The notes below the pieces were generated by a model. It was not told the origin of the DNA and did no database searches. It saw nothing but the letters and a program-made list of their open reading frames with translations. This document shows positions 1-52,380 of a stretch of 64,000 nt of DNA, one piece after another; within the stretch, counting starts at the first letter, position 1; each line of letters opens with the position of its first letter. The stretch comes from an uncultured Bacilli bacterium. GTDB lineage: Bacteria > Bacillota_I > Bacilli_A > RFN20 > CAG-826. A program made the translations under genes and the position numbers. Where the stretch lies: contig CALVXI010000001.1 of the NCBI GenBank assembly GCA_944368975.1, positions 117,365-181,364 on the forward strand. Reading direction: 5' to 3'.

Positions 1-948
1 TTCTATGTTATGTATTATCGTGATGATATAGTGAGTCAATATGGTTTTGATTTACCTGATACTTGGCAAGATGTAATTGAGATTTTACCTGAACTTCAAA
101 GAAATGGTTTTAATTATTACATTCCATTATCAACATCAACTGCAAGTAAATCCATTATGACTACTGCCCCATTTATTTATCAATATGGTGGTAATTTATT
201 TAGTGATGATGGAACTCATACAACAATCGATGAAGAAAATAGTTTAAATGCTATTAAATTAATGACTGAACTTTATACTCTTTATGGATTAGAAGATCAA
301 GTTAGTAATTTCTTTAATTCATTTAGAAATGGTAGTTTACCAATCGGTGTTTCGACTTTCGACACTTATGTTAGACTTACGATTGCTGCTCCTGAAATTA
401 GTGGAAAATGGAAAATTGCTTTACCTCCAGGAGTTAAAAATAGCGACGGAGTCGTTGAAAGATGGCAAACAGGTAGTGCCCAATCAATGTGTTTAATTGA
501 TCAAAACGAAGAAGTAAATAATGCTGGTTGGGAATTACTTAAATGGTGGACTTCAGCTGATGTTCAAACTGAGTTTAGTAATCGTTTAACTCTTCTTTAT
601 GGTAAAGGTTATATTTGGAATAGTGCTAATTTAGAAGCATTTAATAATTCAATGGTCTTTACTACTGAAGAAAAGAATGTCATTTTAGGCGAATGGGAGT
701 GGATGAGAGAAATTCCACGTGTTCCTGGATGGTATATGCTTGAAAGAGAATTATCTAATGCTTGGAATGATATTGTTCTTAATGGACAAAATACACGTGC
801 TGTTATTGAAGATGCAGTAACAGTTGTTAATAACGAACTTGAAAGAAAATTGATTGAGTTTGGTTATTTAGATGATGAAGGAAATATTATTACCCCATAT
901 AAAGTAACTACACTTGAATCAATTGAAGCTTTAAAAGAAGGTAAATAA
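1..948 (+). CDS. Sugar ABC transporter extracellular solute-binding protein, C-terminal ~315 aa (5' end outside the window)
   Basis: Frame 1 is open from base 1 (FYVMYYRDD...). The soluble W/Y/N-rich sequence is typical of family-1 sugar-binding proteins. Stop TAA at 946-948 lies 2 nt before the first permease gene. Confidence 0.7.
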
Positions 949-950
949 TT

Positions 951-1955
951 ATGGAAACTACGAATGTTAATGAAACAATTCCACAAAGCAAAAAAGATGC
1001 TGAAAAACGTAGTAAATTAGACTTTTTAAAGCGTTTTAAAAGAAATAATGAGAATAATAATCATATTGGTGGAGCTAAAAGTGCTATTAGCTCTACCATC
1101 TTGATTTTACCTTATATTTTAAGTTTCTTTACCTTTATTGTTTTACCAGTTATTTTAGCTATAATTCTTTCTTTTACAAACTTTAATGCGATGAATTTTC
1201 CAGAATTTGTCGGGTTAACTAACTATATAAACTTATTTACAAATGATGATGTTTTTATGCAAAAAATCATCCCAAATACCATTAAATTTTCATTAATTTG
1301 TGGCCCAGTTGGTTATTTTTTAAGTTTCTTCTTAGCTTGGTTACTTGCTCAAATTCCAAAAGTTCCTCGTACAATATTAGCTCTTATTATATACTCACCT
1401 AGTTTAACAGCTGGTGTTGCTATGCAAGTTGTTTGGATTGCAATATTTAGTGGTGATGCTAATGGTTATTTAAATGCTATTTTACTTGATATGGGTATTA
1501 TTAATGAAGCGATTCAATGGCTTCAAAGTGAAGAATACTTAATGACCATTATGATTATTGTAACTATATGGTCAAGTATGGGTGTTGGATTTTTAGCAAT
1601 GCTTTCTGGTATTTTAAATATCGATAGTGAATTATATGAAGCAGCTTATGTTGATGGACTTAAAAATAGATTCCAAGAAGTAGCTTATGTTACTTTACCA
1701 AGTATGAAGCCACAGTTACTTTTTGGTGCAGTTATGGCGGTTGTTAATACTTTCCAAGCAGGTTCTATTGGTGTTCAACTTTCAGGAAGTAATCCTACAC
1801 CAAATTATGCTGGAAGTTTAATTATTAACCATATTGAAGATTATGGTTATATCCGTTATGAAATGGGATATGCTAGTGCAATTAGCGTCGTACTTTTAAT
1901 CTTTATTTACGTCGTTAGTATTATTATCCGCAAGATTTTGCAAACAAAGGAGTAG
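951..1955 (+). CDS. Sugar ABC transporter permease (MalF/UgpA/LplB type)
   Basis: 334 aa with about 6 hydrophobic helices. EAA-loop-like segment [33 protein letters not shown] lies upstream of the ATG, and the gene is tightly packed behind the SBP gene. Confidence 0.85.
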
Positions 1956-1959
1956 GAAA

Positions 1960-2829
1960 ATGGCTAGTTTTCAAGGTAAAAAGATTAACCCTAAAAAGTT
2001 TCATCCAAGTCAAATTAAGTTTTATATTTTCTTAATTCCTTTTGCAATCTTTATGGCAATCCCAATTGTCTATATGTTTACAACAGCTTTTAAGCCTCAA
2101 GAGGAGTTATTTAAATTCCCTCCATCAATTTTAGTTTATAACCCAACGATGGATAATTTTAAAAGCTTATTTGATTTATTTGAAACAAGTAGCGTTCCTG
2201 CTAGTAGATACTTATTTAACTCAATTTTAGTTACTTTATTAACTGTTGTTATTTCCGTTATTTTAAGTGTTAGTGCAGGTTATGTTTTAAGTAAGAAGCA
2301 TTTTAAAGGTCAAAAATTATTATTTGAAATTAATACTTTAGCCTTAATGTTTGTTCCTATTGCAGTTACTATTCCTCGCTTTATTATTATTGTTAATTTA
2401 GGATTAATTGATAAATTTATTTCGAATATTTTACCAATTATTGCAATGCCTATTGGTTTATTCTTAGTTAAACAATTTATTGATCAAATTCCTGATGCCG
2501 TAATAGAAGCTGCAAGAATTGATGGAGCTGGAGAATTTACTATTTTATTTAGAGTAATTATTCCAATGGTTAAACCAGCTTTAGCAACAATTGCAATTTT
2601 AAGTTTCCAAAGTGCTTGGGGAGCAACTGAAGCTAGTGTTTATTTCTTAAATGATGAGTCTTTAAAAACATTTGCTTATTATATTACAACTTTTGCTAGT
2701 GGTACTAATGCAGCAACTCAAGGAGTAAGTGCTGCTAGTGCTTTAATTATGTTTGTTCCTAATTTGATTATCTTTATTATTATGCAATCAAATGTTATGG
2801 ATACAATGGCTTATTCAGGTATTAAGTAA
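1960..2829 (+). CDS. Sugar ABC transporter permease (MalG/UgpE/LplC type)
   Basis: 289 aa with about 6 TM helices. EAA loop IEAARIDGAGEFTILFRVIIPMVKPAL. AAGGAG RBS just upstream of the ATG at 1960. Confidence 0.85.
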   Translation: MASFQGKKINPKKFHPSQIKFYIFLIPFAIFMAIPIVYMFTTAFKPQEELFKFPPSILVYNPTMDNFKSLFDLFETSSVPASRYLFNSILVTLLTVVISVILSVSAGYVLSKKHFKGQKLLFEINTLALMFVPIAVTIPRFIIIVNLGLIDKFISNILPIIAMPIGLFLVKQFIDQIPDAVIEAARIDGAGEFTILFRVIIPMVKPALATIAILSFQSAWGATEASVYFLNDESLKTFAYYITTFASGTNAATQGVSAASALIMFVPNLIIFIIMQSNVMDTMAYSGIK

Positions 2830-2830
2830 T

Positions 2831-4888
2831 ATGAAAAAGAGATATTATGTTTTAATATTTTCAATATTTTTAATGATCTTAACTTTCTCTTTTTCAGCAA
2901 GTATTGCTTATGCCTTACCTTATGAAACAGAGACTAGTGGACCTAATGGAGAACTTGTTCCAACTCAACAAGTTTATGAACCATCTAGAAAAATAGTTAT
3001 CCCTTATAATATGCCAGTAAATGAAGACGAATCTAGCACCTTTAATGCTCCTGAAGACATGTTCTATGATGAAGAAACTAATTCTATCTTTATTGCAGAT
3101 ACTGGTAATAAAAGAGTAGTTAGATTAAATTATGATGGAACTGATGCTGATTTTATATATTATGGAAAAGAAGATGAAGCATTAATTGATCCTCGTGGAG
3201 TTAGTTGTAATGATGATTATTTAGTTGTCGCTGATCGTCAACTTGAGAAAGTTATAGTTTATGATAAAGAAACTCTAGCTTATGTTGATGAAATCACTAG
3301 ACCTGATAGCACATTAATTGGTGCAACTTCGACATTTGTTCCAACTAAAGTATGTGTTGATAATCGTGGCAATCTATATATAGTTAGTGAAGGTAACACT
3401 AAAGGCGTTATGCAACTTAATTTAGAAGGCGAATTTGCTGGTTATATTGGTGCAAATGAAACTCCATCTAGCTTCTTAAGTTGGATTCAAGATTTATTTG
3501 GAATTAATAATGATGATGGTTTATTAGCTCAAGGACAAAGTGTTAGTAATATTGCTCTTGATTCTAATGGGCTAGTTTATACAGTTACTAACCAAAGCGC
3601 AACTGCTGCAGTTAAAAAGCTTAATACTACTGGTGTTAGTATTATGTCTCCTTCAATGAACTTTGCTGAAACTACTCAAGTTTGTATTGATAGTAGTGGA
3701 AATATTTATAGCGTTCAAAATGATGGCTATATAACTATTTTTGATAGCTATGGAAGTTTATTATTTAGATTTGGTGGTGTTAATAATGAAGAAGTTTTAG
3801 GTGCTTTAAAAAATCCTATTGCTGTTAATGTTACATCAAATCATGAACTTTTAGTTCTAGATCGTGAACAAAATATGGTCATCTTATATACTCCAACTCA
3901 TTTTGCCAATTTAGTTTTTGATGCAGTTGATTATTATAAAGATGGTTTATATTTAGAAGGGGAAGATGCTTGGTTAGAAGTTTTAAAATATAACAATAAA
4001 TTTATTTTAGCTTATAAGGCACTTGCTAGAGCTAATATGAAAAAAGGTAATTATGATCTTGCTTTAGAACAATTTAAACTTGCTGAAGATAAACAAGGTT
4101 ATAGTGAAGCTTATTGGCAAATTAGAGATACTTGGCTTAGAAGTAACCTTATTTGGATTATTGTTCCAATTTTAGTTTTATGTATTGGAATATATGTAGT
4201 TAAATTAGTAGACCGTAAAAAACCAATGGTTTTTGCTTCTATTAAAAGTGGTTTTAATAGAGCAAACCAAACACATACTTTAGGTGATTTTACTTATATT
4301 TTCCATTATATGAGAAGGCCTCGTGATGCGACTTATGAGATGAAATATAAAGGTAAAACAAGTGTTATTGGTGCTACTATTTTATATTTATTCTTTGTTG
4401 TCATTCAAATTTTACAAGTATATTTAAAAGGTTATTTATTTAATAATACGAACGTATATGATTCTAATGCTTTAGAGATCATCTTACTATCAACTTTACC
4501 TTTAATTTTACTTGTTATATGCAATTATTTTGTTAGTAATGTTACAGATGGTGAAGGTAAGTTTAAACAAGTTTATATTGGAATGATTTATTCTTTAAGT
4601 CCTTACTTAGTATTGTCTATTCCAATTTTCTTAATTTCTAATGTTTTAACTTATAATGAACAAGTTATTTATGATGTATTAATTTGGTTTACCTATATTT
4701 GGTCAGGAATTAATATCTTTTTAACAATAATGGAACTTCATGATTTCACATTCTGGAAAGCAGTTAAAAATATATTACTTACGATTGTGTGCTTTATTTT
4801 AGTTATAGCATTTGCCTTTATTCTTTATATGTTAGCTTATCAACTTGTAGGCTACATTATTAGTGTATGTCAGGAGTTAGCCTTATGA
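2831..4888 (+). CDS. Exported NHL-repeat beta-propeller / TPR-like / Yip1-like multi-pass membrane fusion protein, function unknown
   Basis: Start moved to ATG 2831 (MKKRYYVLIFSIFLMILTFSFSASIAYA signal peptide). Six NHL-like blades, e.g. SIFIADTGNKRVVRLNYDG, YLVVADRQLEKVIVYD, NLYIVSEGNTKGVMQLNLEG, ELLVLDREQNMVILY. A TPR-like stretch (NMKKGNYDLALEQFKLAEDK) is followed by about 6 TM helices. Confidence 0.6.
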   Translation: MKKRYYVLIFSIFLMILTFSFSASIAYALPYETETSGPNGELVPTQQVYEPSRKIVIPYNMPVNEDESSTFNAPEDMFYDEETNSIFIADTGNKRVVRLNYDGTDADFIYYGKEDEALIDPRGVSCNDDYLVVADRQLEKVIVYDKETLAYVDEITRPDSTLIGATSTFVPTKVCVDNRGNLYIVSEGNTKGVMQLNLEGEFAGYIGANETPSSFLSWIQDLFGINNDDGLLAQGQSVSNIALDSNGLVYTVTNQSATAAVKKLNTTGVSIMSPSMNFAETTQVCIDSSGNIYSVQNDGYITIFDSYGSLLFRFGGVNNEEVLGALKNPIAVNVTSNHELLVLDREQNMVILYTPTHFANLVFDAVDYYKDGLYLEGEDAWLEVLKYNNKFILAYKALARANMKKGNYDLALEQFKLAEDKQGYSEAYWQIRDTWLRSNLIWIIVPILVLCIGIYVVKLVDRKKPMVFASIKSGFNRANQTHTLGDFTYIFHYMRRPRDATYEMKYKGKTSVIGATILYLFFVVIQILQVYLKGYLFNNTNVYDSNALEIILLSTLPLILLVICNYFVSNVTDGEGKFKQVYIGMIYSLSPYLVLSIPIFLISNVLTYNEQVIYDVLIWFTYIWSGINIFLTIMELHDFTFWKAVKNILLTIVCFILVIAFAFILYMLAYQLVGYIISVCQELAL

Positions 4889-7053
4889 AATTTCTTACAA
4901 AATTAATTATAACAATCGTTGGATTAACTTCCGTCAGTGTCCCAATTGCAATGGGTGGAACTTATAAACTTGAAAGTAATCAAAATAGTGAAACATTAAA
5001 TGAAGAAACTAATGAAGTTTATACAGTAACTAAAGGTGATACAACTTTAAAAGTAAATAAAGACACTTTATATTTTGAAGTAACTAAAGGTAATTCTACT
5101 TGGAATAGTGGTAAAGTTCTTGAAACTGATGAAGATGTCACAAATAGTCGTAGAGCTTTTATTGAATCGCCTTTAACAGTTTACTTTTTAACTTCTAATG
5201 GTGGAGAAAGTAGTTTTAGTATTTTTGATAGTCGTCATGAAGATACAACTCGTGTCACATTCCATGAAGAAAGTGAAGGTTTTAGTGCTGATTTAAGAAT
5301 TAGAGATGGTAATAATGCTAATTTAAGTTTAGAGATTAATTTAACTCTTAATGTAAAAATCACTGATGATGGCTTAAATATTTATATTACTGATCTAGAA
5401 GAAAATCTAGAAGCAACTAATAGATTATCAAGACTTGTTATTTATCCTGGATTTGATGCAAGTTATGGCTTAGTTGATGGATATGCTTTAATCCCTGATG
5501 GAAGTGGAGCAATCATTAATTATAATGAACCTACTAATGCTCGTAGTGCTCTTTCTTTAACAACTTATGATAGTGATATCGGAGTAAGAAATAATGGAAG
5601 AACATCAACTACTAGTAATGTTTTAACTTTACCTATGTATGCTGTTAATAATTTAAATAGCAGTTATATGGTAACTATTGAAAGTGGTAGTGAATATAGT
5701 TCATTAAATAGTAAGGTTGCTACGATGAGTGATAACTATAACTTAAATTATTTTAGTTTTACTTATCGAGAAATTTTCTACCGTTATTTTGGTATAAGTG
5801 ATTCTACTCGTCGACCAGAACCACAAGAAAACGCTAATCAATTTTTACCAAATTTAACTTATCATCTTTATGATGATAAGTTGACTTATAGTGAATTTGC
5901 TAAAGAATATCAAGACTATTTATTAACTAATAATTTACTTAATAAAGCTAGTGAACTTGAAAGTAGTTTAAGACTTGAATTTTTAATGAGTGAATCTAAA
6001 CCTAGCATGTTTGGAAGAGAAGTTATTGCTATGACTGATACTAACTTTGTTAAAAAAGTTTGCGAAGAACTTAAAGATGAAGTTAATGTTGATGTTAGTT
6101 TACTTGGCGCAAGTAAAGGTGGTTATACTAATTCTTATCCTAATAATTTCCCTCTTGAAAAGAAAACTGGAAGTGAAGGAGATTATAAAGATTTAATTAG
6201 TTATTTAAATAGTTTTGGAATAGAAACTAATTTTATAGTTGATTATATCCGTGCTTTTAGTGATAGCTCAATTAGTGATAAAGATCTTGCGATGAATATG
6301 TCAGAAAAATATATTGAAAGTAACGATATTCATCCTGGAAGTGAATTAATCTTTAATCATCTAACATTAAATAAAACTAAAGATAAGATTAATGGAGATT
6401 TAGGTTTAATTAATGAACTTAATACTAGTGGATTAGATTTTACGTCAATTGGTAATACTTTATATTCAAGTTATCATAATCAAGTATTTTCTAGAGCTGA
6501 AGCTATTAAAGCTTATCAAAATATATTAGGCTCTTTAGATTTAAATGTTAATTTAAGAAAACCTAATTTATACATGTATAATTACTTTAATGATTATTTA
6601 GAAACGCCAATTAGTAATAGTGGATTTTTAATTGAAACAAGTAGTATCCCATTTATATCAATGGTTTTAAGTGGATATAAAAATATGTATAGTAGTGCTT
6701 TAAACTTAAATTATTTAGGAACTAATCAAATCTTAAATTTAATCGATTATAACGTTAATCCAACATATTTATTGACTAAAGAAAGTGCTATTGAATTATT
6801 CCAAACAAGTAGTGAATATATTTTCTCTAGTATGTATAGTGATTGGAAAGAAGAAATTATTAATTCTATTACTTTAGTTAATGATATTTTAAAAGAAGTT
6901 AGTGGTGCTAATTTTATAAATAGAGAAGAAATTAGTAATAATGTTTATAAGAATACCTATAGTAATAATAAAGAAATCATCGTTAATTATTCTGATAATG
7001 ATTTTACTTATAACGGTATTACTATTGAGTCTAGTAGTGCGGAGGTATTTTAA
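4885..7053 (+). CDS. Large (~722 aa) membrane-anchored or secreted protein of unknown function (possibly DUF5696-like)
   Basis: ATG 4885 overlaps the upstream TGA (ATGA), with AGGAG at 4872-4876. N-terminal hydrophobic anchor KLIITIVGLTSVSVPIAMGG. The rest is a soluble S/T/N-rich sequence with no catalytic motif I recognise. The DUF5696 resemblance is from memory only. Confidence 0.45.
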   Translation: MKFLTKLIITIVGLTSVSVPIAMGGTYKLESNQNSETLNEETNEVYTVTKGDTTLKVNKDTLYFEVTKGNSTWNSGKVLETDEDVTNSRRAFIESPLTVYFLTSNGGESSFSIFDSRHEDTTRVTFHEESEGFSADLRIRDGNNANLSLEINLTLNVKITDDGLNIYITDLEENLEATNRLSRLVIYPGFDASYGLVDGYALIPDGSGAIINYNEPTNARSALSLTTYDSDIGVRNNGRTSTTSNVLTLPMYAVNNLNSSYMVTIESGSEYSSLNSKVATMSDNYNLNYFSFTYREIFYRYFGISDSTRRPEPQENANQFLPNLTYHLYDDKLTYSEFAKEYQDYLLTNNLLNKASELESSLRLEFLMSESKPSMFGREVIAMTDTNFVKKVCEELKDEVNVDVSLLGASKGGYTNSYPNNFPLEKKTGSEGDYKDLISYLNSFGIETNFIVDYIRAFSDSSISDKDLAMNMSEKYIESNDIHPGSELIFNHLTLNKTKDKINGDLGLINELNTSGLDFTSIGNTLYSSYHNQVFSRAEAIKAYQNILGSLDLNVNLRKPNLYMYNYFNDYLETPISNSGFLIETSSIPFISMVLSGYKNMYSSALNLNYLGTNQILNLIDYNVNPTYLLTKESAIELFQTSSEYIFSSMYSDWKEEIINSITLVNDILKEVSGANFINREEISNNVYKNTYSNNKEIIVNYSDNDFTYNGITIESSSAEVF

Positions 7054-7054
7054 G

Positions 7055-8557
7055 ATGATTAAATTTAAAGATATATATTTTCAATATCAATCTAATTATC
7101 CTAAAACTTTAATTAATTTTATTTTAAAGAAAGATAAGAATCATTCTTTAAATAAAAAGAGTATCAATGATAATTTAAAAAAGATTATAAAGTTTGAAGA
7201 TACTTCCTATTTAAATGATATTTTCACTAATGAAAATAAAGCTCATATGAAAGAGATTTTAAAAGAAGAAATTGAAAGAATTTCTTTTGATTATAATAAA
7301 ATCCTTTTAGAACTCGACTCTTTTTATGAAAAATCATTTAATAATGCTTCATTTAATCAAAAAGAAATTACTAAAGAATTAAATAAATTTGATAAAGAAT
7401 TTCAAAAATATAATTTACCATTTATTTACTATAATATTTCTTTTATCTTAGATTTTAAAAGAACTATCAATAATGAACTTAAGTTATTTTATGAAAAAGA
7501 GAAGTCTGGAGAATATGTTGATTTAAATGAAGTTAATAAAAGAATGAATAAATATTTTATTAACTTAAAAGAAACTATTAAAGGCTTAGAGGAAAGCTTA
7601 AGTATTGATATTGATACTTATTTAAATAATTTAATTACTCGAATTAATGAAGAATATAAAATTATTTTTGAAAATAAAGATAACTTTAAAATTACAATTC
7701 CTAATTGGACTAAAGGATTATTATTTTGCTTACCTTGGATCATTGGTTTTTGTATTTTCACTGTTTATCCTTTAATTCAAACATTCGTTTTCTCATTTAA
7801 TTATGTTGTTCCAACAAGTGATGGCTTTAGAATGGATGGAGTAGGTTTTACTAATTATATAAATCTATTTACTAAAGACACTGATTTTATAAATGCAATC
7901 GGTGATTATTTAGTTGAAATGATTATCTACGTCCCTGTTATTACAGTTGTTAGTTTATTACTTGCTTTATTATTAAATACTAAAGTTAAAGGAACAGGAT
8001 TTTTTAGAACAATTTTCTTCTTACCTGTAATTATTACTAGTGGTCCAGTTTTACAAATCTTAATGGAACAAGGTGTTACTTCTATTCCTGGACTTAGTGA
8101 AATTATTAATTTAGAAGAAATTAGTCAAGGTTTACCAAGATTCCTTCAAACAGCATTAGATATTATAACTAATGAATTTATCGTTATTTTATGGTTCTGT
8201 GGTATTCAAATTTTAGTCTTTATGACTGGTTTACAAAAGATCGATAAAGGAGTTTATGAAGCTGCGAATATTGATGGAGCTGGTAAGTGGGAGAAGTTCT
8301 GGAAAGTTACTTTACCTGCTATAAATCCAACAATTGTTATTAATGTTGTTTTCACGGTTGTCATGCAATCAATCTTTGCTTTAAATCCAATCATTTTAAA
8401 GATTCAACAAGATATGAATGATACTAGTGGTGAAAGAGGTTATGGTTATTCAAGTGCGATGGCCTTTACTTACTTCTTAATCATGATTATCGTGTTAGTT
8501 ATTTTTGTTCTTATCTTTAAGAGTAAGAACAAAAAAGTTAAGAAAGTGGGGGCATAG
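7055..8557 (+). CDS. Sugar ABC permease (MalF/UgpA type) with ~245-aa N-terminal soluble K/N/E-rich extension
   Basis: Start at ATG 7055 (GGAGG at 7038-7042), 1 nt after the upstream stop. The first TM helix appears only near aa 250 (LLFCLPWIIGFCIFTVYPLI). EAA loop VYEAANIDGAGKWEKFWKVTLPAINP. Confidence 0.8.
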   Translation: MIKFKDIYFQYQSNYPKTLINFILKKDKNHSLNKKSINDNLKKIIKFEDTSYLNDIFTNENKAHMKEILKEEIERISFDYNKILLELDSFYEKSFNNASFNQKEITKELNKFDKEFQKYNLPFIYYNISFILDFKRTINNELKLFYEKEKSGEYVDLNEVNKRMNKYFINLKETIKGLEESLSIDIDTYLNNLITRINEEYKIIFENKDNFKITIPNWTKGLLFCLPWIIGFCIFTVYPLIQTFVFSFNYVVPTSDGFRMDGVGFTNYINLFTKDTDFINAIGDYLVEMIIYVPVITVVSLLLALLLNTKVKGTGFFRTIFFLPVIITSGPVLQILMEQGVTSIPGLSEIINLEEISQGLPRFLQTALDIITNEFIVILWFCGIQILVFMTGLQKIDKGVYEAANIDGAGKWEKFWKVTLPAINPTIVINVVFTVVMQSIFALNPIILKIQQDMNDTSGERGYGYSSAMAFTYFLIMIIVLVIFVLIFKSKNKKVKKVGA

Positions 8558-8559
8558 TT

Positions 8560-10275
8560 ATGAAAAAGTTTTTTAATGATTTATTAAATAAAATTAAATA
8601 TGTCTTTACTCCTATTTCTAAAGAGACCAAAAAAGAAATAAAAGAAATTAGAATTAAAGAGAAAACTACTAAAAACCTTGCAAAAACCCGATTAAATTTA
8701 ATTATTAAAGAAATTAAAGAATCTAGTAAAGGTAATTTAGAAGCTTTAAAATTCGATATTAAAGGTTTTAAAAATGTCATTCATAACACGAAAGTTTCTA
8801 GTAATAATTTTTACTTTGAACACTTTATAAAAGAAGACTTTAATCGTTTAGGACTTAGTTCAAGTTTAGTAATATCTCATGATTCGAAAATTAATCTTAA
8901 AGAAGAATTAATTTCTAAGTTAAGTGAATTTAATAATAGTAATTTATCAAAATTTAAAGCTTATTTTGAAATGATTAAGATTAATAAATTAATTAATAAA
9001 TCTATAAATTATTTATTAGAAGATTATAAAACTAAGTCTAATTTCTTTATCATTAAAAATATCTTTAAAAAAGATGGATTAGAAGTTATTAAATCATACT
9101 TTAATGAAGTTAAAGAGTATTCTTTAACTTACATAAAGAATGATAATTTTAAATTAGATAAGGATTTAGAATTAACAATAACTAACATTAATAATTTAAT
9201 TAATAATGCATCAATTAAATTAAAAGAATATCCATATCACTTTAAAGAAACAAAAGTTTATCTTTCTTTAGTTAATTCTTTTAATAAAAAGTTTAAAAAA
9301 CTTAAACCTATTGTTACTAAAGAAGTTACTAGATTTTATGATCTATTTAAAAAAGAAAACTTTAACCGTGAAACTATTAAAACTTATTTATTTGGTAGTG
9401 AAGAACGTCGAGGAATTTTAACAAATATTGTTGTTTATGCTTTATTAATTTTATTCGGTTTTGTTTATCTTTATCCAATGCTTTATATGCTTTCTTATAG
9501 TTTTATGAGTAGTAGTGATTTAGTTAACCCTAATGTTACTTATATTCCTACTCATTTAGAAGGACAAAACTATATCGATGCATTTACAGTATTAAATTAT
9601 TGGTCAACATTAGGAGAAAGTTTACTTGTTAGTATTCTTCCAGCAATTTGTCAAACAGTATGTTGTTCACTTGTTGCTTATGGACTAGCTAGATATGAAT
9701 TTAAAGGAAAGAAAATTTTATTTGGTTTAATTATTTTCACCTTTTTAATTCCATCTTGTTTAACAATGTTACCAACTATTAGTTTATATGCCTCAATGGG
9801 CATAACTGGCAATGTTTTAAGTTATATCTTACCAGCTTTATTTGGTCAAGGGCTTAAAAGTGCCGTCTTTATCTTAATTTTTTATCAATACTTTAAAGGT
9901 ATTCCTCAATCAATTACTGAAGCTGCTGAAATTGATGGTGCAAATACATTTGTCGTATTTTTAAGAATAGCAATTCCAAGTGCTAAAAGTGGAATTCTTT
10001 TATCAATCTTACTTAGTGTAGTTTGGTATTATAACGAAACTGTTTTAGCTAGTGCTTTCTTTGGAAGTGAGATTTCTACTTTACCATTAGCCTTAGAAAA
10101 CTTTAAATCCTCATTTGATAATATTTATCAAGATGCTGCTAATGGAAAAAGTATTAATGAAGCTATTTATATGGCTGGTACAATGCTTAACATTTTACCA
10201 TTACTTATTCTTTACTTCTTTACACAAAAATACTTCGTTCAAGGTGTTGATAAAGCAGGAATTACTGGAGAATAA
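8560..10275 (+). CDS. Sugar ABC permease (MalG/UgpE type) with ~285-aa N-terminal soluble K/N-rich extension
   Basis: 571 aa. The first TM helix is near aa 287 (ILTNIVVYALLILFGFVYLYP). EAA loop ITEAAEIDGANTFVVFLRIAIPSAK. The N-terminal third has no hydrophobic segment. Confidence 0.8.
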   Translation: MKKFFNDLLNKIKYVFTPISKETKKEIKEIRIKEKTTKNLAKTRLNLIIKEIKESSKGNLEALKFDIKGFKNVIHNTKVSSNNFYFEHFIKEDFNRLGLSSSLVISHDSKINLKEELISKLSEFNNSNLSKFKAYFEMIKINKLINKSINYLLEDYKTKSNFFIIKNIFKKDGLEVIKSYFNEVKEYSLTYIKNDNFKLDKDLELTITNINNLINNASIKLKEYPYHFKETKVYLSLVNSFNKKFKKLKPIVTKEVTRFYDLFKKENFNRETIKTYLFGSEERRGILTNIVVYALLILFGFVYLYPMLYMLSYSFMSSSDLVNPNVTYIPTHLEGQNYIDAFTVLNYWSTLGESLLVSILPAICQTVCCSLVAYGLARYEFKGKKILFGLIIFTFLIPSCLTMLPTISLYASMGITGNVLSYILPALFGQGLKSAVFILIFYQYFKGIPQSITEAAEIDGANTFVVFLRIAIPSAKSGILLSILLSVVWYYNETVLASAFFGSEISTLPLALENFKSSFDNIYQDAANGKSINEAIYMAGTMLNILPLLILYFFTQKYFVQGVDKAGITGE

Positions 10276-10277
10276 AA

Positions 10278-11615
10278 ATGAAGAAAAATGTTTGTTTATT
10301 ATTAGGAACTCTAAGTTTATTAACTATTTCATCATGTGATCCATCAAAAGGTAGCATTAATGAAAATTTAATAAAGGATGAGATTGAAAAAACTTATAAC
10401 TATTTTATGGCTACTACTAATTTAAAAGAGAATAGTAATGGCTATGGTTTAGTTCAAGACCGTTTTACAAATAAAAATAACTCATCAATTGCTGCTACTG
10501 GTTTTGCTTTAGCTGCTTATCCAATTTATGTTGAAGAAGGACTTATGACAAAAGAAGAAGCAAATGAAATTGTTACTAAGTCGCTTGAAACAATTTTACG
10601 AATTCAAAATGATGAAAGAGTAAGTTACGAAGGCTGTATTTCTCATTTTGTTAACATGAATACAGGCTTAAGAGTTGGTGGAAGCGAAATTTCAACTATC
10701 GATACAGCAATTTTAGTTAGTGGAGCTATTGCTAGTGGTGCTTATTTTGAAGGTGAAGCTGAAACTCTTGCTAATACTATTTGGAGTAATGTTGATTATA
10801 ATGCTTTCTCAATTGAAAGAAATGGTAAGAAATATATTTCAATGGGAACTGATAATCCTGCAAGCTTTGAAACAATTAAACAACTTGGACCTTGGGATTA
10901 TTATGCTGAACAATTAATGATTTATATTCTTGGAGCTGGAAATCCTAATGAAGAACATCGTATTAGTAAAGAATATTATGAAGATATAACTAAAAACATT
11001 GGTGAATTTGAAGGACATAGTCATATTTATTCTTGGTATGGTTCAATTTTTACTTATCAATTCTCACATGCTTTCTATGACTTCCATACATATGAAGATA
11101 GTGATGGAATTAATTGGCACGAAAATAGTGTTGAAGCAACTTTAACAAGTAAAGCATATAGTGAGTATTATGCTAAAGCTTATCGCACTTTCGAAGAAGG
11201 TGGTTGGGGATTAACAGCATGTGATACTCCTACTGGATATAGTGGATTACTTGGTACCCCACCAAGAGGATGGAATGATGTTGGAAGTAACTATCTAGAT
11301 ATAGAAGGAACAGTTGCTCCATGTGGTGCAATTGGTAGTTTCATTTTTACTCCAGAAGAATCTTATGAAGCTTTAGAGTTATTTAGAAGTTACAAAGCAT
11401 TAAATCATCCAGATTTTGGTTTATATGATTCATATAATTTAGATTATCGTGGAATTGAATGGTATTGCCGTGATTTTGTTGGTATTGATAAAGGTATATC
11501 AGTCTTAATGATGGGTAATTATCTTCATGATAATTTAATACAAGAACTCGTTATGTCTAATCCATACGTAATTGAGGGATTTACAAATAATGGATTTAGT
11601 AAAGTGAGTGAATAA
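10278..11615 (+). CDS. Lipoprotein, putative (alpha/alpha)6 glycoside hydrolase of the glucoamylase-like / GH144-like (DUF3131) type
   Basis: Lipobox LLTISSC. Segments SSIAATGFALAAY, DYYAEQLMIYILGAGNPNEEHRI and GGWGLTACDTPTGYSG resemble, from memory, the 'putative glucoamylase' domain of endo-beta-1,2-glucanases. Not verified by search. Confidence 0.5.
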   Translation: MKKNVCLLLGTLSLLTISSCDPSKGSINENLIKDEIEKTYNYFMATTNLKENSNGYGLVQDRFTNKNNSSIAATGFALAAYPIYVEEGLMTKEEANEIVTKSLETILRIQNDERVSYEGCISHFVNMNTGLRVGGSEISTIDTAILVSGAIASGAYFEGEAETLANTIWSNVDYNAFSIERNGKKYISMGTDNPASFETIKQLGPWDYYAEQLMIYILGAGNPNEEHRISKEYYEDITKNIGEFEGHSHIYSWYGSIFTYQFSHAFYDFHTYEDSDGINWHENSVEATLTSKAYSEYYAKAYRTFEEGGWGLTACDTPTGYSGLLGTPPRGWNDVGSNYLDIEGTVAPCGAIGSFIFTPEESYEALELFRSYKALNHPDFGLYDSYNLDYRGIEWYCRDFVGIDKGISVLMMGNYLHDNLIQELVMSNPYVIEGFTNNGFSKVSE

Positions 11616-11617
11616 AC

Positions 11618-12814
11618 ATGGAATTAAACAAAGTGAATGCATATAAAGAATTAGAGTTATCAGTAAAATTCTTTTTAGACACATTTTCAAAAGAAGATAT
11701 AAGTTATGGTCTAGTGCCTGATACATATTTAACGACTAAATCAAACATTTCTTCGATAGCGGGAACTGGTTATTTATTTAGTGCTTTAGTGATTGGAAGT
11801 GAAATAAATTTAATCAGTAAAAATAAAGCTAAAGAGATCGCTATTAAAGCTCTTAAAACTATTAAAAATTTAAAAAGAGTTAAAGGATGGTATTATCATT
11901 TTTACGATATAAATAATGGTCAAAATACTCTTCATAGCGAAGTTAGCAATATTGATTCATGTTTATTATTTTTAGGAATTCTTACTTGTGGAGAATATTT
12001 TAAAGGAGAAGTTGAAAAACTTGCAAAAGAGATATTTTTCCTTGCAGATTTCAACTATTTTTTAGATAAATCTACAAATATTATGAATATGGCAATCGAT
12101 TATAAAGGGAATATGTATGCTAAATGGGATTATTTAGCTGAACAACTTATGATCTATATTTTAGGTGTTAATACTTTAAATAAAGATTACCGTATTCCAA
12201 AAGAAACTTTCTATAGCTTTAAGAAAAAATTAATGAGTTATGAAGAACTTAATTTCTATGCTTCTTGGAATGGTTCTTTATTTACTTATCAATATACTCA
12301 AACTTATGTTGATTTTAGAAATACAATTGATAATGAAGGTATTAATTGGTTTAATAATTCTAAATTAGCAACTATAGCAAGTTATCGTTATAGTAAAAGT
12401 TTAAAAGATAAATATCGTTCAATTAATGAATTAAGTTGGGGATTAACTGCTTCAGCTAGTAAAAAGGGCTATAGTGGAAATTATTCAAGTATTCCACTAG
12501 GAGATAAAGTAAATACTGTTGATGGAACAATGGCTCCTACTGGAGCAATTAGTTCAATAGTATTTCTTGAAAAAGAATCTCTTGATGCTATTAATCATTA
12601 TTATTCATTACCTTATTTAGTTGGAAAATATGGATTATATGATGCTTATAATGATGATTTAAATTTTGTTGCAGATTACTATATCTCAATTGATAAAGGA
12701 AATGCGATGGTTATGTTAAGTAATTACTTTAATGAAACAATCTGGAAATATTTCAATCAAATTGATTTTATTAAAGAAGCTAAGGAAATAATTGGAATTC
12801 GAAAGGAGAATTAG
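11618..12814 (+). CDS. Cytoplasmic paralogue of the preceding glucoamylase-like / GH144-like protein
   Basis: No signal peptide. Shares blocks with the 10278-11615 product: SSIAGTGYLFSAL, DYLAEQLMIYILGVN, LFTYQY, GINWF/GINWH, SWGLTASASKKGYSG, APTGAISS/APCGAIGS, GLYDAYN/GLYDSYN. Confidence 0.5.
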   Translation: MELNKVNAYKELELSVKFFLDTFSKEDISYGLVPDTYLTTKSNISSIAGTGYLFSALVIGSEINLISKNKAKEIAIKALKTIKNLKRVKGWYYHFYDINNGQNTLHSEVSNIDSCLLFLGILTCGEYFKGEVEKLAKEIFFLADFNYFLDKSTNIMNMAIDYKGNMYAKWDYLAEQLMIYILGVNTLNKDYRIPKETFYSFKKKLMSYEELNFYASWNGSLFTYQYTQTYVDFRNTIDNEGINWFNNSKLATIASYRYSKSLKDKYRSINELSWGLTASASKKGYSGNYSSIPLGDKVNTVDGTMAPTGAISSIVFLEKESLDAINHYYSLPYLVGKYGLYDAYNDDLNFVADYYISIDKGNAMVMLSNYFNETIWKYFNQIDFIKEAKEIIGIRKEN

Positions 12815-12816
12815 TT

Positions 12817-13938
12817 ATGGGGAGAATTTCATTACAACATATTTATAAAATTTACCCAGGTGCCACTGAACCTGCGGTAAAAGATTTTACTTTGGAAATT
12901 CACGATAAGGAATTCGTAGTTTTCGTTGGTCCTTCTGGATGTGGTAAGTCTACTACATTAAGAATGATTGCAGGACTTGAAGAAATCTCTAAAGGTGATC
13001 TTTATATCGATGATCGTAAAGTCAATAAAGTTGAACCTAAAGATCGTGATATCGCAATGGTTTTCCAAAATTATGCACTTTATCCATATATGACAGTATT
13101 TCAAAATATGTCATTTGGACTTCGTTTAAGAAAAGTTCCTAAAAAGGAAATTGAACAAAAAGTTCTTAAAGCTGCAAAAATTTTAGGAATTGAAGAATAT
13201 CTTGACCGTAAACCTAAAGCTCTTAGTGGTGGTCAAAGACAAAGAGTTGCTTTAGGTAGAGCTATCGTTCGTGAACCAAAAGTTTTCTTACTTGACGAAC
13301 CTTTAAGTAACCTTGATGCTAAGATGCGTGCTCAAATGAGAACTGAAATCATTAAGCTTCATAACGAATTACAAACAACATTCGTCTATGTTACTCACGA
13401 TCAAACAGAAGCTATGACAATGGGTACAAGAATCGTCGTTATGAAAGATGGTGTTATTCAACAAGTTGATACACCAGATAACTTATATGATTATCCAACT
13501 AATAAATTCGTTGCTGGTTTTATTGGAACACCACAAATGAACTTTATCGATGTAACTTTAATTAAAGAAAATGAAAATACTTATGCTACATTTGGTAAAA
13601 ATAAAGTTAAATTAGATGAAGAAACAGTTAAGAGAATTAAGATTAGTGATTATAACAATCATCAATTTGTCTTAGGTATTAGGCCTGAAGATATTTATCT
13701 TGAAGATGAAAAAGCAACAAGAGAAAATGGTTTAGTTGAAGCAAAAGTTAAAGTCTTGGAAAAACTTGGAAATGAAATACTAGTTTACACAAATTGCAGT
13801 GGTAAAGATGGTGAACTTGTATTTAGAAGTAAACCAAGAACAAATATTTATGAAGATGATGTCATTTCATTAAGATTTGACACCAAACAAATACATTTAT
13901 TTGATTTTAATACTGAAGAAACAATTTTAACTAGATAG
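12817..13938 (+). CDS. msmX: Multiple-sugar ABC transporter ATP-binding protein (MsmX/MalK type)
   Basis: Walker A GPSGCGKST, signature LSGGQRQRVALGRA, Walker B VFLLDEPLSNLD, H-loop YVTHDQ. C-terminal TOBE-like domain ends ISLRFDTKQIHLFD. AAGGAG RBS. Confidence 0.9.
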   Translation: MGRISLQHIYKIYPGATEPAVKDFTLEIHDKEFVVFVGPSGCGKSTTLRMIAGLEEISKGDLYIDDRKVNKVEPKDRDIAMVFQNYALYPYMTVFQNMSFGLRLRKVPKKEIEQKVLKAAKILGIEEYLDRKPKALSGGQRQRVALGRAIVREPKVFLLDEPLSNLDAKMRAQMRTEIIKLHNELQTTFVYVTHDQTEAMTMGTRIVVMKDGVIQQVDTPDNLYDYPTNKFVAGFIGTPQMNFIDVTLIKENENTYATFGKNKVKLDEETVKRIKISDYNNHQFVLGIRPEDIYLEDEKATRENGLVEAKVKVLEKLGNEILVYTNCSGKDGELVFRSKPRTNIYEDDVISLRFDTKQIHLFDFNTEETILTR

Positions 13939-13948
13939 GGAGGGTTTT

Positions 13949-16342
13949 ATGAAAAAACGTAGTAGTTTATTATTGTTAAGTGTCATCGGTGTATCCATGC
14001 TTTTAGCAGGATGTAATCCTGGTGGCGGTGAAGGTGGAGATGGTGGTAATAAAGAACCAGGCGACACCTATAGTTTAATGAAATTCTGGGCAGGAAATGC
14101 CTCAGAAGAAATTTATTCTGTTGAAGAAAATGAAACTTCAACCGTTATTACTTATACAGATGCAGTTAGTGAAGGAAATGGCGGCTGGGAATTCATTGCT
14201 AGATCATTTGCATATGATACTCTTTATATTGACTATTTCGATAAATATGAAAAATTAACTTTTACTGGTAACCTAGAAACTACAAGTGGTACTAATGAAG
14301 TTATGATTAAGTTCGAAGGTGCTGGTTCTGGTAATTATGAAAAGAGATTTACTTTCGAAGAAGAAACTAGAACATATGAACTTCCATTAAACTTTATTAG
14401 TGATTGGTCACAAGTTTCTCAAATTACCTTATTTGTTAATAGAGGTGCTAATAGTAAAGAAAATGGAAGTGGTGTCATGACATTTACTGATATTAGCCTA
14501 TCAACCGAACCTGTTAATCCTGAAAATAATATTGCTCCTGATCAAGAAGATAAACCTCAAGAAGCTAATATTTATGCTGGTGAAAAAGATAAGTTTAATG
14601 TTATGAAAAGTTGGGGCTATGACAATACTGGAACTATTAAAACAACCGAAAATAGTGATGGAACATTTAAATTTGATTATGATAAAGATGCTTCACCACA
14701 AACATATGCTTATGCTAGTGCAAAAGTTGAAGGCGATTTAAGTATATCAGGATTTAAGAGACTCCATTTTGCTATTAATGGTACTGCTGGTCAACAATTA
14801 ATGGTTAAATTCCAAACCCATGACAATGCAAAAGCTAAAGAATTAACTATTGAATTAACTGGTGAAGATCAAACTGTCGATATTGATATTACTCAAATCA
14901 TTACCGCAACTTATGAAGCTGACGGAGTCACATATACTTCATTTATTGCAGGTATATTCCCACTTCCAGGTGCTACTAGTGGAAAAGGTAGTGTCACTTT
15001 AAAAGAATGTTATATGGATACAACTGAAGCAGTTATAATCGAAACACCTGTTAATACTCCTGAAGGTGATTACTTATATCTTACAAAACCTTATAAAAAT
15101 GATAGCATCTATGACTATTCTCTTGAAGGTAATAAGATGACAATCAATTATGAATATCCTGAAACAGCTACATTACCAACATGGGCTTCACTTATGTTTG
15201 ATATTGATGGTGAAAATTTAACACAATTTACAAAATTAACTGGTACAATTACTTCAACTGTTGATGTCCAAGTACTTTTAAAGAGCTATGATAATAACGA
15301 AAAAGGACAAACATTCATTGACTTAAAGGCTAATGAACAATATAAAGTTGATGTTGAAATTGATTCTAACATTATTAATAAGGATAAAGATTTTATCATT
15401 ATTATTGGAACTACTGAAACAAGTGCTAAAAAAGGTACTGTTGTATTTGAAAATTTACGTTATGAAAAAGATACTTCAATTCCTGTTATTTATGATAATG
15501 AAAGAGAAGGAGATGAACTTAAAATTACTAAATTTTCAGTAATCCCAGAACAATTTACTTTAACTAATGGTGAAAATTCTTTTGATGTTGACTATAAAAG
15601 AACTCAATTAGATTGGAATGGTTTAGAAGCAACAATTGGTGGTGAGAACTTAACTGAATTAAGAAAATTAACTGGTACTATTACAGCAACTGTTAATACG
15701 GATATAATTATTAAACAAACTGCTGAATCAGCACCTGCTAATGAAATTAAAAGAACATTAACTGCTAATACTCCACTTGTTCTTGATGAAGTGATTCCTG
15801 AAGAATTAATGGTTGAAGGTGCTAAGTTCATCATTATGATTGCTACACCTAATAATTCTGGTAGTGCTTTAGAAGGAAAAGTTACATTTACAAATTTAAA
15901 ATTTGTTAAATATGAAGAACCAGCTCCTGTAGTTGAAGAATTAGCAATTACTAGTTTTACTGATTATAGTGAAACAATCTATAGCTATACTTATACTGAA
16001 GGTTCTAAAGAATTAAAAATTGCCTTTGATAAAACAACCGATCCAACTGGATATCCAGGATTACAAGTTAAACTAAATGCAGAAAATTTAGTAGAATTTA
16101 AAAGAGTTACTGGAAAAGTAATTAGTGATGTTGATCAAAAAATTATCATTAAAAATTTGGGCTATGAAGAGCGTATAGATTTAAAAGCAGGAGTAGAAAC
16201 AGCAATTGATTTTGTTAGTCAAAAAGAGGACGTAAATGCAATGTTTGTTATTATGTTAGGTGTCCCTGAAGATCCTTATAAAGATGCTATTAAAGGTAAT
16301 GTAACATTTACTGACCTTAAAGTTACAAAAGTTAGTGCATAA
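13949..16342 (+). CDS. 797-aa surface lipoprotein with five tandem beta-sandwich-like (CBM-like) modules, putative glycan-capture protein
   Basis: Lipobox MLLAGC followed by a Gly-rich linker NPGGGEGGDGG. Five ~130-150-aa modules each end in G-x-V-T/V-F-x-[DN]-L: GVMTFTDISL, GSVTLKECYM, GTVVFENLRY, GKVTFTNLKF, GNVTFTDLKV. An ENL[TV].F.[KR][LV]TG motif recurs in modules 3-5. Confidence 0.6.
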   Translation: MKKRSSLLLLSVIGVSMLLAGCNPGGGEGGDGGNKEPGDTYSLMKFWAGNASEEIYSVEENETSTVITYTDAVSEGNGGWEFIARSFAYDTLYIDYFDKYEKLTFTGNLETTSGTNEVMIKFEGAGSGNYEKRFTFEEETRTYELPLNFISDWSQVSQITLFVNRGANSKENGSGVMTFTDISLSTEPVNPENNIAPDQEDKPQEANIYAGEKDKFNVMKSWGYDNTGTIKTTENSDGTFKFDYDKDASPQTYAYASAKVEGDLSISGFKRLHFAINGTAGQQLMVKFQTHDNAKAKELTIELTGEDQTVDIDITQIITATYEADGVTYTSFIAGIFPLPGATSGKGSVTLKECYMDTTEAVIIETPVNTPEGDYLYLTKPYKNDSIYDYSLEGNKMTINYEYPETATLPTWASLMFDIDGENLTQFTKLTGTITSTVDVQVLLKSYDNNEKGQTFIDLKANEQYKVDVEIDSNIINKDKDFIIIIGTTETSAKKGTVVFENLRYEKDTSIPVIYDNEREGDELKITKFSVIPEQFTLTNGENSFDVDYKRTQLDWNGLEATIGGENLTELRKLTGTITATVNTDIIIKQTAESAPANEIKRTLTANTPLVLDEVIPEELMVEGAKFIIMIATPNNSGSALEGKVTFTNLKFVKYEEPAPVVEELAITSFTDYSETIYSYTYTEGSKELKIAFDKTTDPTGYPGLQVKLNAENLVEFKRVTGKVISDVDQKIIIKNLGYEERIDLKAGVETAIDFVSQKEDVNAMFVIMLGVPEDPYKDAIKGNVTFTDLKVTKVSA

Positions 16343-16356
16343 TTAATTTAATCTTA

Positions 16357-16390
16357 ATCACAATGCTAAACTTCGGTTTAGCATTGTGAT
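16357..16390 (+). terminator. Strong hairpin at the operon end (15-bp perfect stem, UUCG loop)
   Basis: atcacaatgctaaac-ttcg-gtttagcattgtgat, 15 nt after the stop at 16342. It is followed by an A-rich rather than T-rich tract, so it may be a non-canonical terminator or an RNA-stabilising hairpin. Confidence 0.55.
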
Positions 16391-16449
16391 AACAAAAAAA
16401 TAAAAAAATATTCAAGAATAGAAGGGATTTAAATTAAAAATAGAAAGTT

Positions 16450-16470
16450 TTATTAACGATTTGTTAATAA
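16450..16470. promoter_or_regulatory. Inverted repeat (candidate operator) immediately upstream of the GH39-like gene
   Basis: TTATTAAC-gattt-GTTAATAA, perfect 8-bp arms, ending 15 nt before ATG 16486. No SD sequence is visible there. Confidence 0.3.
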
Positions 16471-16485
16471 ATAAGTTATTTATTT

Positions 16486-23261: not shown

Positions 23262-23290
23262 TTGACAACATGCATTTTTGATTAAATAAT
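23262..23290 (+). promoter_or_regulatory. Putative sigma-A promoter of the malQ/maltodextrin operon
   Basis: TTGACA (23262-23267), 17-nt spacer, AATAAT (23285-23290). Confidence 0.5.
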
Positions 23291-23303
23291 GAAAGCGCTT
23301 ACA
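23290..23303. promoter_or_regulatory. Catabolite-responsive element (cre, CcpA operator)
   Basis: TGAAAGCGCTTACA matches every fixed position of the cre consensus TGWAANCGNTNWCA. It overlaps the end of the -10 box and the expected +1. Confidence 0.7.
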
Positions 23304-23321
23304 AAGAAAGTGTATGTTTTT

Positions 23322-24833: not shown

Positions 24834-24905
24834 ATTCGGTAATTAAAGTCGTTGTGACTTAATTATATAAAAAAATTCAATTCATAAGGAGGTTATAATT
24901 AATTT

Positions 24906-26183: not shown

Positions 26184-26193
26184 TATTATTTTG

Positions 26194-26221
26194 TTAGAGA
26201 ACACGAATTCGTGTTCTCTAA
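26194..26221 (+). terminator. Hairpin/attenuator between the SBP and permease genes
   Basis: ttagagaacacg-aatt-cgtgttctctaa (12-bp perfect stem) followed by acttttatt. This placement is typical for raising SBP transcript levels over the permeases. Confidence 0.6.
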
Positions 26222-26249
26222 ACTTTTATTGATAGTTTAAGGAGAATTT

Positions 26250-28645: not shown

Positions 28646-28647
28646 TT

Positions 28648-30225: not shown

Positions 30226-30234
30226 GAGAAAAAT

Positions 30235-32790: not shown

Positions 32791-32815
32791 TTTCATTAAA
32801 TGAGGAGGTTAAATT

Positions 32816-34096: not shown

Positions 34097-34123
34097 TTTA
34101 ATAAAAGTTTACAAAAAAAGATT

Positions 34124-34154
34124 ATATTTGAGCCTCATTAAGAGGCTCAAATAT
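34124..34154 (+). terminator. Inter-cistronic hairpin (possible partial terminator or processing site)
   Basis: atatttgagcctc-attaa-gaggctcaaatat (13-bp perfect stem). There is no T-run, and the GGAGG RBS of the pullulanase gene follows immediately. Confidence 0.35.
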
Positions 34155-34165
34155 ATGGAGGTATT

Positions 34166-52379: not shown

Positions 52380-52380
52380 T

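Follow-up and report, generated by a model that had tools for sequence, protein, structure and literature searches.

The first part of a 64,000-nt stretch of DNA from an uncultured Bacilli bacterium (GenBank assembly GCA_944368975.1, contig CALVXI010000001.1, positions 117,365 to 181,364 of the forward strand; below, the window) encodes a large part of a glycan-uptake operon, which was analyzed together with its upstream part found on another contig. The complete unit is quite probably a LacI-controlled beta-1,2-glucan utilization operon of ~22–24 kb, built on a cassette with two importers and belonging to an uncultured gut member of Bacilli. Gram-positive bacteria of gut and soil take up glycans mainly by means of ATP-binding cassette (ABC) importers that depend on a solute-binding protein (SBP); such importers are usually described as consisting of a single SBP with two permeases and an ATPase that is shared. 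The analyzed locus is an SBP-dependent ABC glycan-utilization locus and not a new category; at the same time, it is an instance of a widespread and apparently undescribed dual-importer cassette that includes two conserved accessory proteins.

According to the listing of open reading frames (ORFs) and their translation, window positions 1–16342 contain an unbroken run of genes, every one of them on the plus strand. The junctions range from an overlap of 4 nt to a gap of 10 nt, and a GGAGG-like Shine–Dalgarno site is located upstream of most genes. A preliminary description of this DNA had reported the same co-directional packing, and its gene order and assignments agree with the Pfam analysis. 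It had further noted two distinct permease pairs and one ATPase, and the pairs are indeed distinct, the first permeases being 30% identical (a1/b1) and the second ones 24% identical (a2/b2). In addition, it had claimed a ~16-kb operon with only one visible binding protein, no transcription factor linked within 1–18030, and no canonical SBP adjacent to the second permease pair (pair B).

The upstream sequence was found by an exact look-up of the a1 permease protein in public assemblies, which gave scaffold_267 of ENA assembly ERZ28614306 (L001). L001 and the window are identical across all 11,955 overlapping bases, base 1 of the window being position 9051 of L001. The upstream genes are all on the same strand as the window operon and encode a LacI-family regulator, a 248-aa membrane protein, a GH94 protein, a second, small SBP (s), and the missing N-terminal part of the large SBP (S), the tail of which opens the window. 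The whole operon thus comprises two SBPs, two permease pairs, one MsmX-type ATPase, and a linked LacI gene. Its extent is ~22 kb (13 genes) from the promoter found before the GH94 gene and ~24 kb counting LacI; window positions 1–16342 are its distal two-thirds. The apparent lack of a binding protein results from the window edge cutting the operon, since the s gene is located just upstream of the window; a second SBP gene at this place is what the preliminary description itself had named as refuting its reading. Of the earlier claims, that of a long and tightly packed unit holds, whereas the size, the single SBP, the SBP-less pair B, and the absence of a linked regulator do not.

The departure from the usual layout with one SBP and one permease pair, which had also been pointed out earlier, is borne out. 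The next locus of the same window (23289–36814), a maltodextrin system, shows the usual layout at 24906–32790, where a single SBP, a single permease pair, and a single ATPase are encoded; therefore, the 2:2:1 layout is specific to the operon and is not a habit of this genome. As for regulation, the 139-nt gap before the GH94 gene contains the best promoter match of the region (L001 ~3154–3182), TTGAAA-17-TATAAT, with 11 of 12 consensus matches. A 12-nt palindrome, AAAATCGATTTT, is located in the spacer of this promoter and looks like a LacI-type operator, for which it is a candidate.

Conservation of the gene order was analyzed starting from the DUF5696 protein (D) encoded between the two permease pairs. 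An alignment of its homologues was used to scan a collection in which each species is represented by a single genome; a relative is encoded in at least 567 stretches, the best 80 of which were retained with 10-kb flanks. The sixteen operon proteins were then searched against six-frame ORFs of these 80 loci using phmmer and then jackhmmer. A locus was considered comparable if its flanks reached 8.5 kb or more upstream and 2.2 kb or more downstream of the DUF5696 gene; 60 loci qualified. All 60 have the same seven-gene order on one strand, S-a1-a2-Y-D-b1-b2, where a1a2 and b1b2 are the permease pairs of importers A and B and Y is a protein with an NHL beta-propeller and a Yip1 domain. The s gene is located directly upstream of S in 53 of the 60, and L001 joined with the window contains all eight genes, s-S-a1-a2-Y-D-b1-b2, on the same strand and in the same order. 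The loci belong to Bacillaceae, Paenibacillaceae, Lachnospiraceae, Oscillospiraceae, Mycoplasmatota (Izemoplasmatales and Acholeplasmatales), one member of Anaerolineae, and one Treponema. Identity of DUF5696 proteins to that of the window is 23–41% across the kept loci, and the cassette order is retained at 20–26% identity in metagenome contigs L083, L084, L087, and L088. The metagenome-assembled genome (MAG) GCA_949298345.1, with 95% protein identity, has the same gene order.

Since conservation of neighbors was not a criterion for retrieval, the conserved order is real evidence that the two permease pairs, Y, and D belong together rather than form a chance tandem. Two ordinary, independent sugar loci that came to be co-transcribed, functionally linked neither to each other nor to Y and D, would also have two SBPs and two permease pairs, with which each importer could function alone; in addition, the SBPs are unrelated pairwise and the permease pairs are only 24–30% identical. 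Such a tandem is nevertheless improbable. The interleaved order is found in 60 of 60 loci across phyla, down to ~20% identity, both SBP genes are usually at the head, and Y and D are always located between the pairs, which chance would not conserve. Moreover, the S, Y, and D matrices co-varied (partial r 0.47–0.58) in a mirror-tree analysis, in which distance matrices were compared across the 53 loci where each of the eight genes is full-length, after the average of the remaining families had been removed. The interleaved order also does not fit the other way out offered by the preliminary description, namely a split into a pair of conventional loci having one SBP apiece.

The DUF5696 family includes 3,506 representatives at 50% identity (E ≤ 1e-3), and a full-text literature search found no paper mentioning it. 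A literature search for Yip1 proteins combined with SBPs and glycoside hydrolases (GH), or for double permease pairs with MsmX, likewise found nothing relevant. An ATPase gene within 10 kb is present in only 10 of the 60 related cassettes, most of which carry none. In several lineages, Y is represented by two adjoining genes, NHL and Yip1 (L084, 5530–7605; L088, 5361–7681; L066; L073; L076), and fusion of the two parts is therefore not obligatory.

The operon contains the parts expected for importers of type I (carbohydrate uptake transporter 1, CUT1): an SBP_bac_1/8 protein per importer, two BPD_transp_1 transmembrane domains (TMDs) each, and one MalK/MsmX-type nucleotide-binding domain (NBD) with OB/TOBE. 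The EAA-x2-DG coupling motif, at which the ATPase docks, is retained in each of the four permeases. Judging from these features, the cassette would encode two complete type I importers, each with its own SBP, and the ATPase encoded at 12817–13938, which is the only NBD of the operon, presumably powers both of them. The large SBP has a transmembrane (TM) anchor at residues 29–47 and ~520 aa of extra extracellular sequence before the SBP_bac_1/8 domain. The N-terminal half of its homologues shows weak, sub-threshold matches to CBM_6, CBM_35, and Golvesin_C at two positions, and that of S itself has no sequence match in PDB; these matches are suggestive of a half resembling carbohydrate-binding modules (CBMs).

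In the related loci, S always immediately precedes a1a2. Partial r in the mirror-tree analysis was 0.60 for S and a1, 0.51 for S and a2, 0.17 for S and b1, and 0.30 for S and b2, and for the small SBP the values were 0.48 with b2, 0.26 with b1, and −0.30 with both a1 and a2. The pairing of S with a1a2 and of s with b1b2 is on this indirect basis somewhat favored over other arrangements. The mirror-tree signal is, however, weak and confounded by shared phylogeny. In addition, 7 of the 60 loci have b1b2 but no adjoining small SBP gene, which leaves room for S as the binding protein of both pairs or for an SBP encoded elsewhere that works with b1b2. In favor of the pairing, a small SBP gene (14153–15487) directly follows b2 in L087, and SBP genes are located after b2 in L050 and L062 as well.

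A PDB search with s found only 22hh and 4g68; the 22hh–22hl series ("Extracellular solute-binding protein family 1") was the sole strong match (E = 9.5e-41). Over the aligned 384-residue fragment, the crystallized chain shares 74% identity with the small SBP of an Anaerolineae cassette, L012 (1734–3206), and 29% identity with s of the window. An orthologue of s from a cassette of this type has therefore been crystallized five times; literature searches located no publication for 22hh–22hl. As for the importer B permeases of the window, both have N-terminal, TM-free extensions rich in K, N, and I that are presumably cytoplasmic, ~220 aa in b1 (7055–7720) and ~285 aa in b2 (8560–9415), and b1 contains no TM segment before residue 223. 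Most orthologues, with typical lengths of 290–330 aa, have no such extensions. They were also found in L003, L006, L007, and L012, among which only b1 of L003 is weakly similar to that of the window (25% identity). The extensions were rejected as a conserved feature of the system, being lineage-specific and K/N-rich.

Two proteins, Y and D, appear to be extracytoplasmic accessory components of the cassette. Y is encoded in 60 of 60 loci and has an NHL propeller of ~410 aa and six predicted TM segments (residues 439–457 and 512–666), with the Yip1 domain among them. The AlphaFold2 model of D (pLDDT 87.5, pTM 0.88) consists of a (beta/alpha)8 barrel flanked by N-terminal and C-terminal beta-sandwiches. 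According to Foldseek, its best structural matches are GH129 proteins, ZgGH129 (5opq; E = 7.7e-31, TM-scores 0.66/0.72) and NagBb (5wzn), followed by GH101, GH36, and GH97. Comparison with GH129 and GH101 structures (5opq, 5wzn, and SpGH101 5a55) gave TMq of 0.62–0.66 and TMt of 0.71–0.75 at 12–13% identity, and the DUF5696 profile matched GH129 sequences marginally (E ~1e-3), with alignment on non-catalytic segments only. D is thus confidently predicted to have a GH129/GH101-like glycosidase fold. The known GH129 and GH101 enzymes share the three-domain architecture predicted for D; they act on alpha-linked or anhydro-galactosides, not on beta-glucans.

In the 80 DUF5696 sequences, only two acidic residues are universal, D/E621 and D205, the latter being part of an invariant motif, PDGSGA, in the N-domain; no acidic pair is conserved throughout the family at barrel positions, and the candidate barrel positions 453, 529, 569, and 586 vary. 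At residues 529, 569, and 586, where 51–86% of the 80 members have Asp or Glu, D of the window has S, N, and S, and it may be a catalytically degenerate member of the family. Judging from the model, D would either trim the substrate or bind it, as an enzyme or as a glycosidase-derived binding protein.

The distal 797-aa lipoprotein was modeled with AlphaFold2 on a 14-sequence alignment as five all-beta modules (pLDDT 80, pTM 0.34); the pTM value is expected for modules arranged as beads on a string. Its Foldseek matches are jelly-roll or CBM-like domains, among them reelin repeats, Cry protoxin domains, protein 5x7o with its CBM35, the Bacteroides surface glycan-binding protein SGBP-B (7kwb), and BcsB. 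No periplasmic-binding-protein (Venus-flytrap) fold was found among these matches, and no SBP Pfam family is present. The family is narrow (32 homologues). Judging from the model, the lipoprotein is likely an accessory surface glycan-binding protein. The preliminary description had instead put it forward as the only nearby candidate for an extracellular binder of pair B. The protein is extracellular and modular, and no second SBP is visible within the window; yet a 483-aa SBP_bac_1 lipoprotein is encoded upstream in the same operon, the model shows beta-sandwiches with CBM-like neighbors and not a two-lobed SBP, and homologues occur in 8 of the 60 related loci, as compared with 60 of 60 for b1b2. 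This proposal is very improbable.

The cassette proteins could alternatively make up an integrated surface machine. In it, both importers would be complexed with Y, D, and S, the last contributing a CBM-like N-terminal half; after capture, the polymer would be processed by D and imported as two product classes, and s would be a secondary add-on. That S, a1a2, Y, D, and b1b2 always occur together and in a fixed order, that S, Y, and D co-vary, and that the seven loci mentioned above have b1b2 and no adjacent s all agree with this arrangement, and so does the parallel with YknW, a Yip1-domain accessory membrane subunit of the ABC transporter YknXYZ of Bacillus subtilis. The YknWXYZ system resembles the cassette in that a Yip1 membrane protein is encoded together with an ABC transporter; the comparison is one of descriptions, and, unlike the cassette, YknXYZ is of the exporter type and YknW has no NHL propeller. 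On the other hand, phylogeny may account for the co-variation, 53 of 60 loci do have s, a plain s:b1b2 importer would agree with the s gene following b2 in L087, and D is a putative enzyme with variable acidic barrel residues. The integrated machine is therefore regarded as a less probable arrangement. If it exists, it would be an analogue of the Bacteroidota utilisome in Gram-positive bacteria and Mycoplasmatota, and DUF5696 would either found a new family of glycoside hydrolases or represent a conserved lectin of pseudo-glycosidase type.

As for the substrate, evidence comes primarily from two PF10091 paralogues, GH144a and GH144b, which are 37% identical to each other. For both, the best PDB match is XcSGL (XCC2207; 8xul), with E = 5e-39 for GH144a and 1.6e-33 for GH144b; CpSGL (5gzh) was matched with E = 2e-16 and 8e-23, respectively. 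XcSGL is a GH144 beta-1,2-glucanase, and CpSGL has the same specificity (PMC12102758). GH144a has a lipobox and GH144b has no signal peptide, which suggests extracellular endo-cleavage followed by cytoplasmic trimming. Judging from sequence features, GH144a is likely an extracellular endo-beta-1,2-glucanase, and GH144b is probably cytoplasmic. For the GH94 protein, the best PDB match is the corresponding domain of cyclic beta-1,2-glucan synthase, Cgs (E = 4.3e-135). Among the 60 related loci, GH144 is found in 24, GH94 in 27, and at least one of the two in 35. The GH94 protein adjoining the Sutcliffiella cassette (1,117 aa) matches LpSOGP (5H3Z; PMC5309861) over its full length with E = 0. From these data, beta-1,2-glucan would be the substrate in this clade.

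Several observations weigh against this assignment. The operon GH94 is almost as near to cellobiose phosphorylases (E = 1.6e-115), and chitobiose phosphorylases were also matched. It is not of the SOGP type: no match to 5h3z was found at E ≤ 1e-3, and its length is 785 aa as compared with ~1100 aa including a duplicated N-domain. Neither SBP matched a solved structure of an SBP named for beta-1,2-oligosaccharides. Moreover, distant cassettes adjoin other genes, namely DUF4434 together with GFO/IDH/MocA oxidoreductases, GH106, or GH20. The cassette itself thus appears substrate-generic, with beta-1,2-glucan as a clade-specific use. The operon could also serve another beta-glucoside or oligosaccharide (cellobiose, cellodextrin, or a mixed glycan), with PF10091 proteins of a different specificity. 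The closeness of the cellobiose phosphorylase score to that of the Cgs domain, a GH39 gene downstream of the hairpin that follows the operon, and the different carbohydrate-active enzymes that accompany the cassette elsewhere speak for it. It is, nevertheless, unlikely, given that the operon has two PF10091 genes with proven beta-1,2-glucanases as their best solved relatives, that the cassette recurs beside true SOGP orthologues in Bacillaceae, and that no cellulase of the GH5, GH9, or GH48 type is present.

With beta-1,2-glucan as the substrate, the operon may function as follows. The five-module CBM-like lipoprotein would hold the polymer at the cell surface, where the GH144a lipoprotein would cut it to sophoro-oligosaccharides. 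The s and S proteins would hand the products to the two importers, both driven by the single MsmX-type ATPase of the operon, and cytoplasmic GH144b together with the GH94 phosphorylase would complete the degradation.

Gene clusters for beta-1,2-gluco-oligosaccharides were described in Listeria innocua (lin1839–1841) and Streptomyces griseus (SGR_2422–2427) (PMC12369401). Similar to the operon, these Gram-positive loci encode a CUT1 importer together with enzymes acting on beta-1,2-glucan, either a GH94 phosphorylase or a glucosidase accompanied by a beta-1,2-glucanase, and degradation is finished in the cytoplasm. In contrast to the operon, they contain one SBP (Lin1841 or SGR_2425), one permease pair, and no Yip1/NHL or DUF5696 protein; the 785-aa GH94 of the operon, which is not SOGP-like, is a further difference. 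In Bacillota, "multitask" ATPases of the MsmX type, such as MsmX of B. subtilis, serve several CUT1 importers. As in the operon, one MalK-like NBD with OB/TOBE presumably energizes more than one TMD pair in such systems; the operon differs in that the ATPase is encoded inside it and both importers belong to one conserved cassette. Polysaccharide utilization loci (PULs) include a surface binding lipoprotein, a surface endo-enzyme, an importer, cytoplasmic enzymes, and a regulator, both in Bacteroidota (Sus-like PULs and utilisomes) and in Gram-positive bacteria. The operon shares this logic but has no SusC/D, transport being carried out by two SBP-dependent ABC importers. The conserved Y and D proteins have no known counterpart in described Gram-positive PULs.

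The module, a fixed pair of importers with two unstudied extracytoplasmic proteins, would offer a new building block for annotation of Gram-positive PULs and a route to the function of DUF5696 and bacterial NHL-Yip1 proteins. Beta-1,2-glucan is a polymer made by Proteobacteria; its use by uncultured gut Bacilli, if true, would be a hardly explored cross-feeding link. The cassette is carried by cultured bacteria (Sutcliffiella, Fictibacillus, Metabacillus, Paenibacillus lactis, and Cohnella), which makes direct testing feasible. The features of the operon are listed in Table 1.

Table 1. Features of the operon on the upstream contig (L001) and in the window.
Feature	Position	Strand	Evidence
LacI-family regulator	L001 1419–2357	same as operon	
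248-aa membrane protein, weak signal-peptidase-I similarity	L001 2357–3103	same as operon	two TM; TIGR02228/02227 below cutoff
GH94, 785 aa	L001 3243–5600	same as operon	Pfam
s, 483-aa SBP_bac_1 lipoprotein	L001 5609–7060	same as operon	PF01547/PF13416; lipobox LTSC
S, complete, 986 aa	L001 7038–9998	same as operon	PF13416/PF01547 at residues 574–865
S, SBP_bac_1/8 tail (last 315 codons of the 986-aa large SBP)	1–948	+	Pfam
a1, MalF-like TMD of importer A	951–1955	+	BPD_transp_1 PF00528; EAA motif YEAAYVDG
a2, MalG-like TMD of importer A	1960–2829	+	PF00528; EAA motif IEAARIDGAG
Y, signal peptide, extracellular NHL beta-propeller, C-terminal Yip1 multi-TM domain	2831–4888	+	Pfam Yip1, NHL, SBBP
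D, exported or anchored DUF5696 protein	4885–7053	+	PF18952, E 1e-117
b1, TMD of importer B	7055–8557	+	PF00528 at residues 319–526; EAA motif YEAANIDGAG
b2, TMD of importer B	8560–10275	+	PF00528 at residues 373–564; EAA motif TEAAEIDGAN
GH144a, first PF10091 ("glucoamylase-like") paralogue, lipoprotein	10278–11615	+	PF10091 1e-50; lipobox ISSC
GH144b, second PF10091 paralogue, without signal peptide	11618–12814	+	PF10091 5e-45
MalK/UgpC/MsmX-type ATPase	12817–13938	+	ABC_tran, OB_MalK, TOBE_2; NCBIfam UgpC subfamily, 478 bits, above cutoff
797-aa lipoprotein, five modules	13949–16342	+	lipobox LAGC; no Pfam/NCBIfam match
Strong hairpin	16357–16390	+	15-bp stem, dG −21.6 kcal/mol, z −7.4

The hairpin behind the lipoprotein gene, reported in the preliminary description, proved to be real, as none of 200 shuffled sequences folded equally well. 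It is followed by an A-run and has no T-tract, which explains why the terminator scan did not flag it. The hairpin is likely the 3' end of the transcription unit; with the U-tract absent, read-through into the GH39 gene is possible, which would speak against an end at this point. That gene (16486–18030, no signal peptide) begins after a 143-nt gap behind the hairpin. It is kept beside the cassette in the MAG with 95% identity and was not found adjoining any other cassette. In the region, six terminator-like sites were found as compared with 4.0 expected, i.e., the level of chance. The sole such site within the operon, a 12-bp hairpin with a T-rich run at 1067–1098 of the window, is located in the a1 coding sequence; as an internal terminator it was rejected as probably fortuitous, given its location and the chance level of the site count. 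According to Rfam, the operon contains no riboswitch or leader, the only match in the window being a tRNA at 45276–45348. At the other end of the operon, the 248-aa signal-peptidase-like gene is located ~6–6.7 kb upstream of window base 1 and overlaps the LacI stop codon by 1 nt; its product may be a dedicated processing peptidase for the exported proteins of the operon.

The host was assessed from other genes of the window. Its PyrG shares 85% identity with the PyrG of Candidatus Onthovivens, which is placed in Bacilli, and the window encodes EzrA and an [FeFe]-hydrogenase at a GC content of ~27%, which points to a walled, anaerobic, low-GC Bacilli bacterium. In the maltodextrin locus, the MalK-like ATPase (30235–32790) is 851 aa long, with ~480 residues past the NBD and OB domains that have no Pfam match. 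At 52351–56055, a NuoF-like flavoprotein is encoded beside the large subunit of the [FeFe]-hydrogenase, which is consistent with an electron-bifurcating hydrogenase in an anaerobe.

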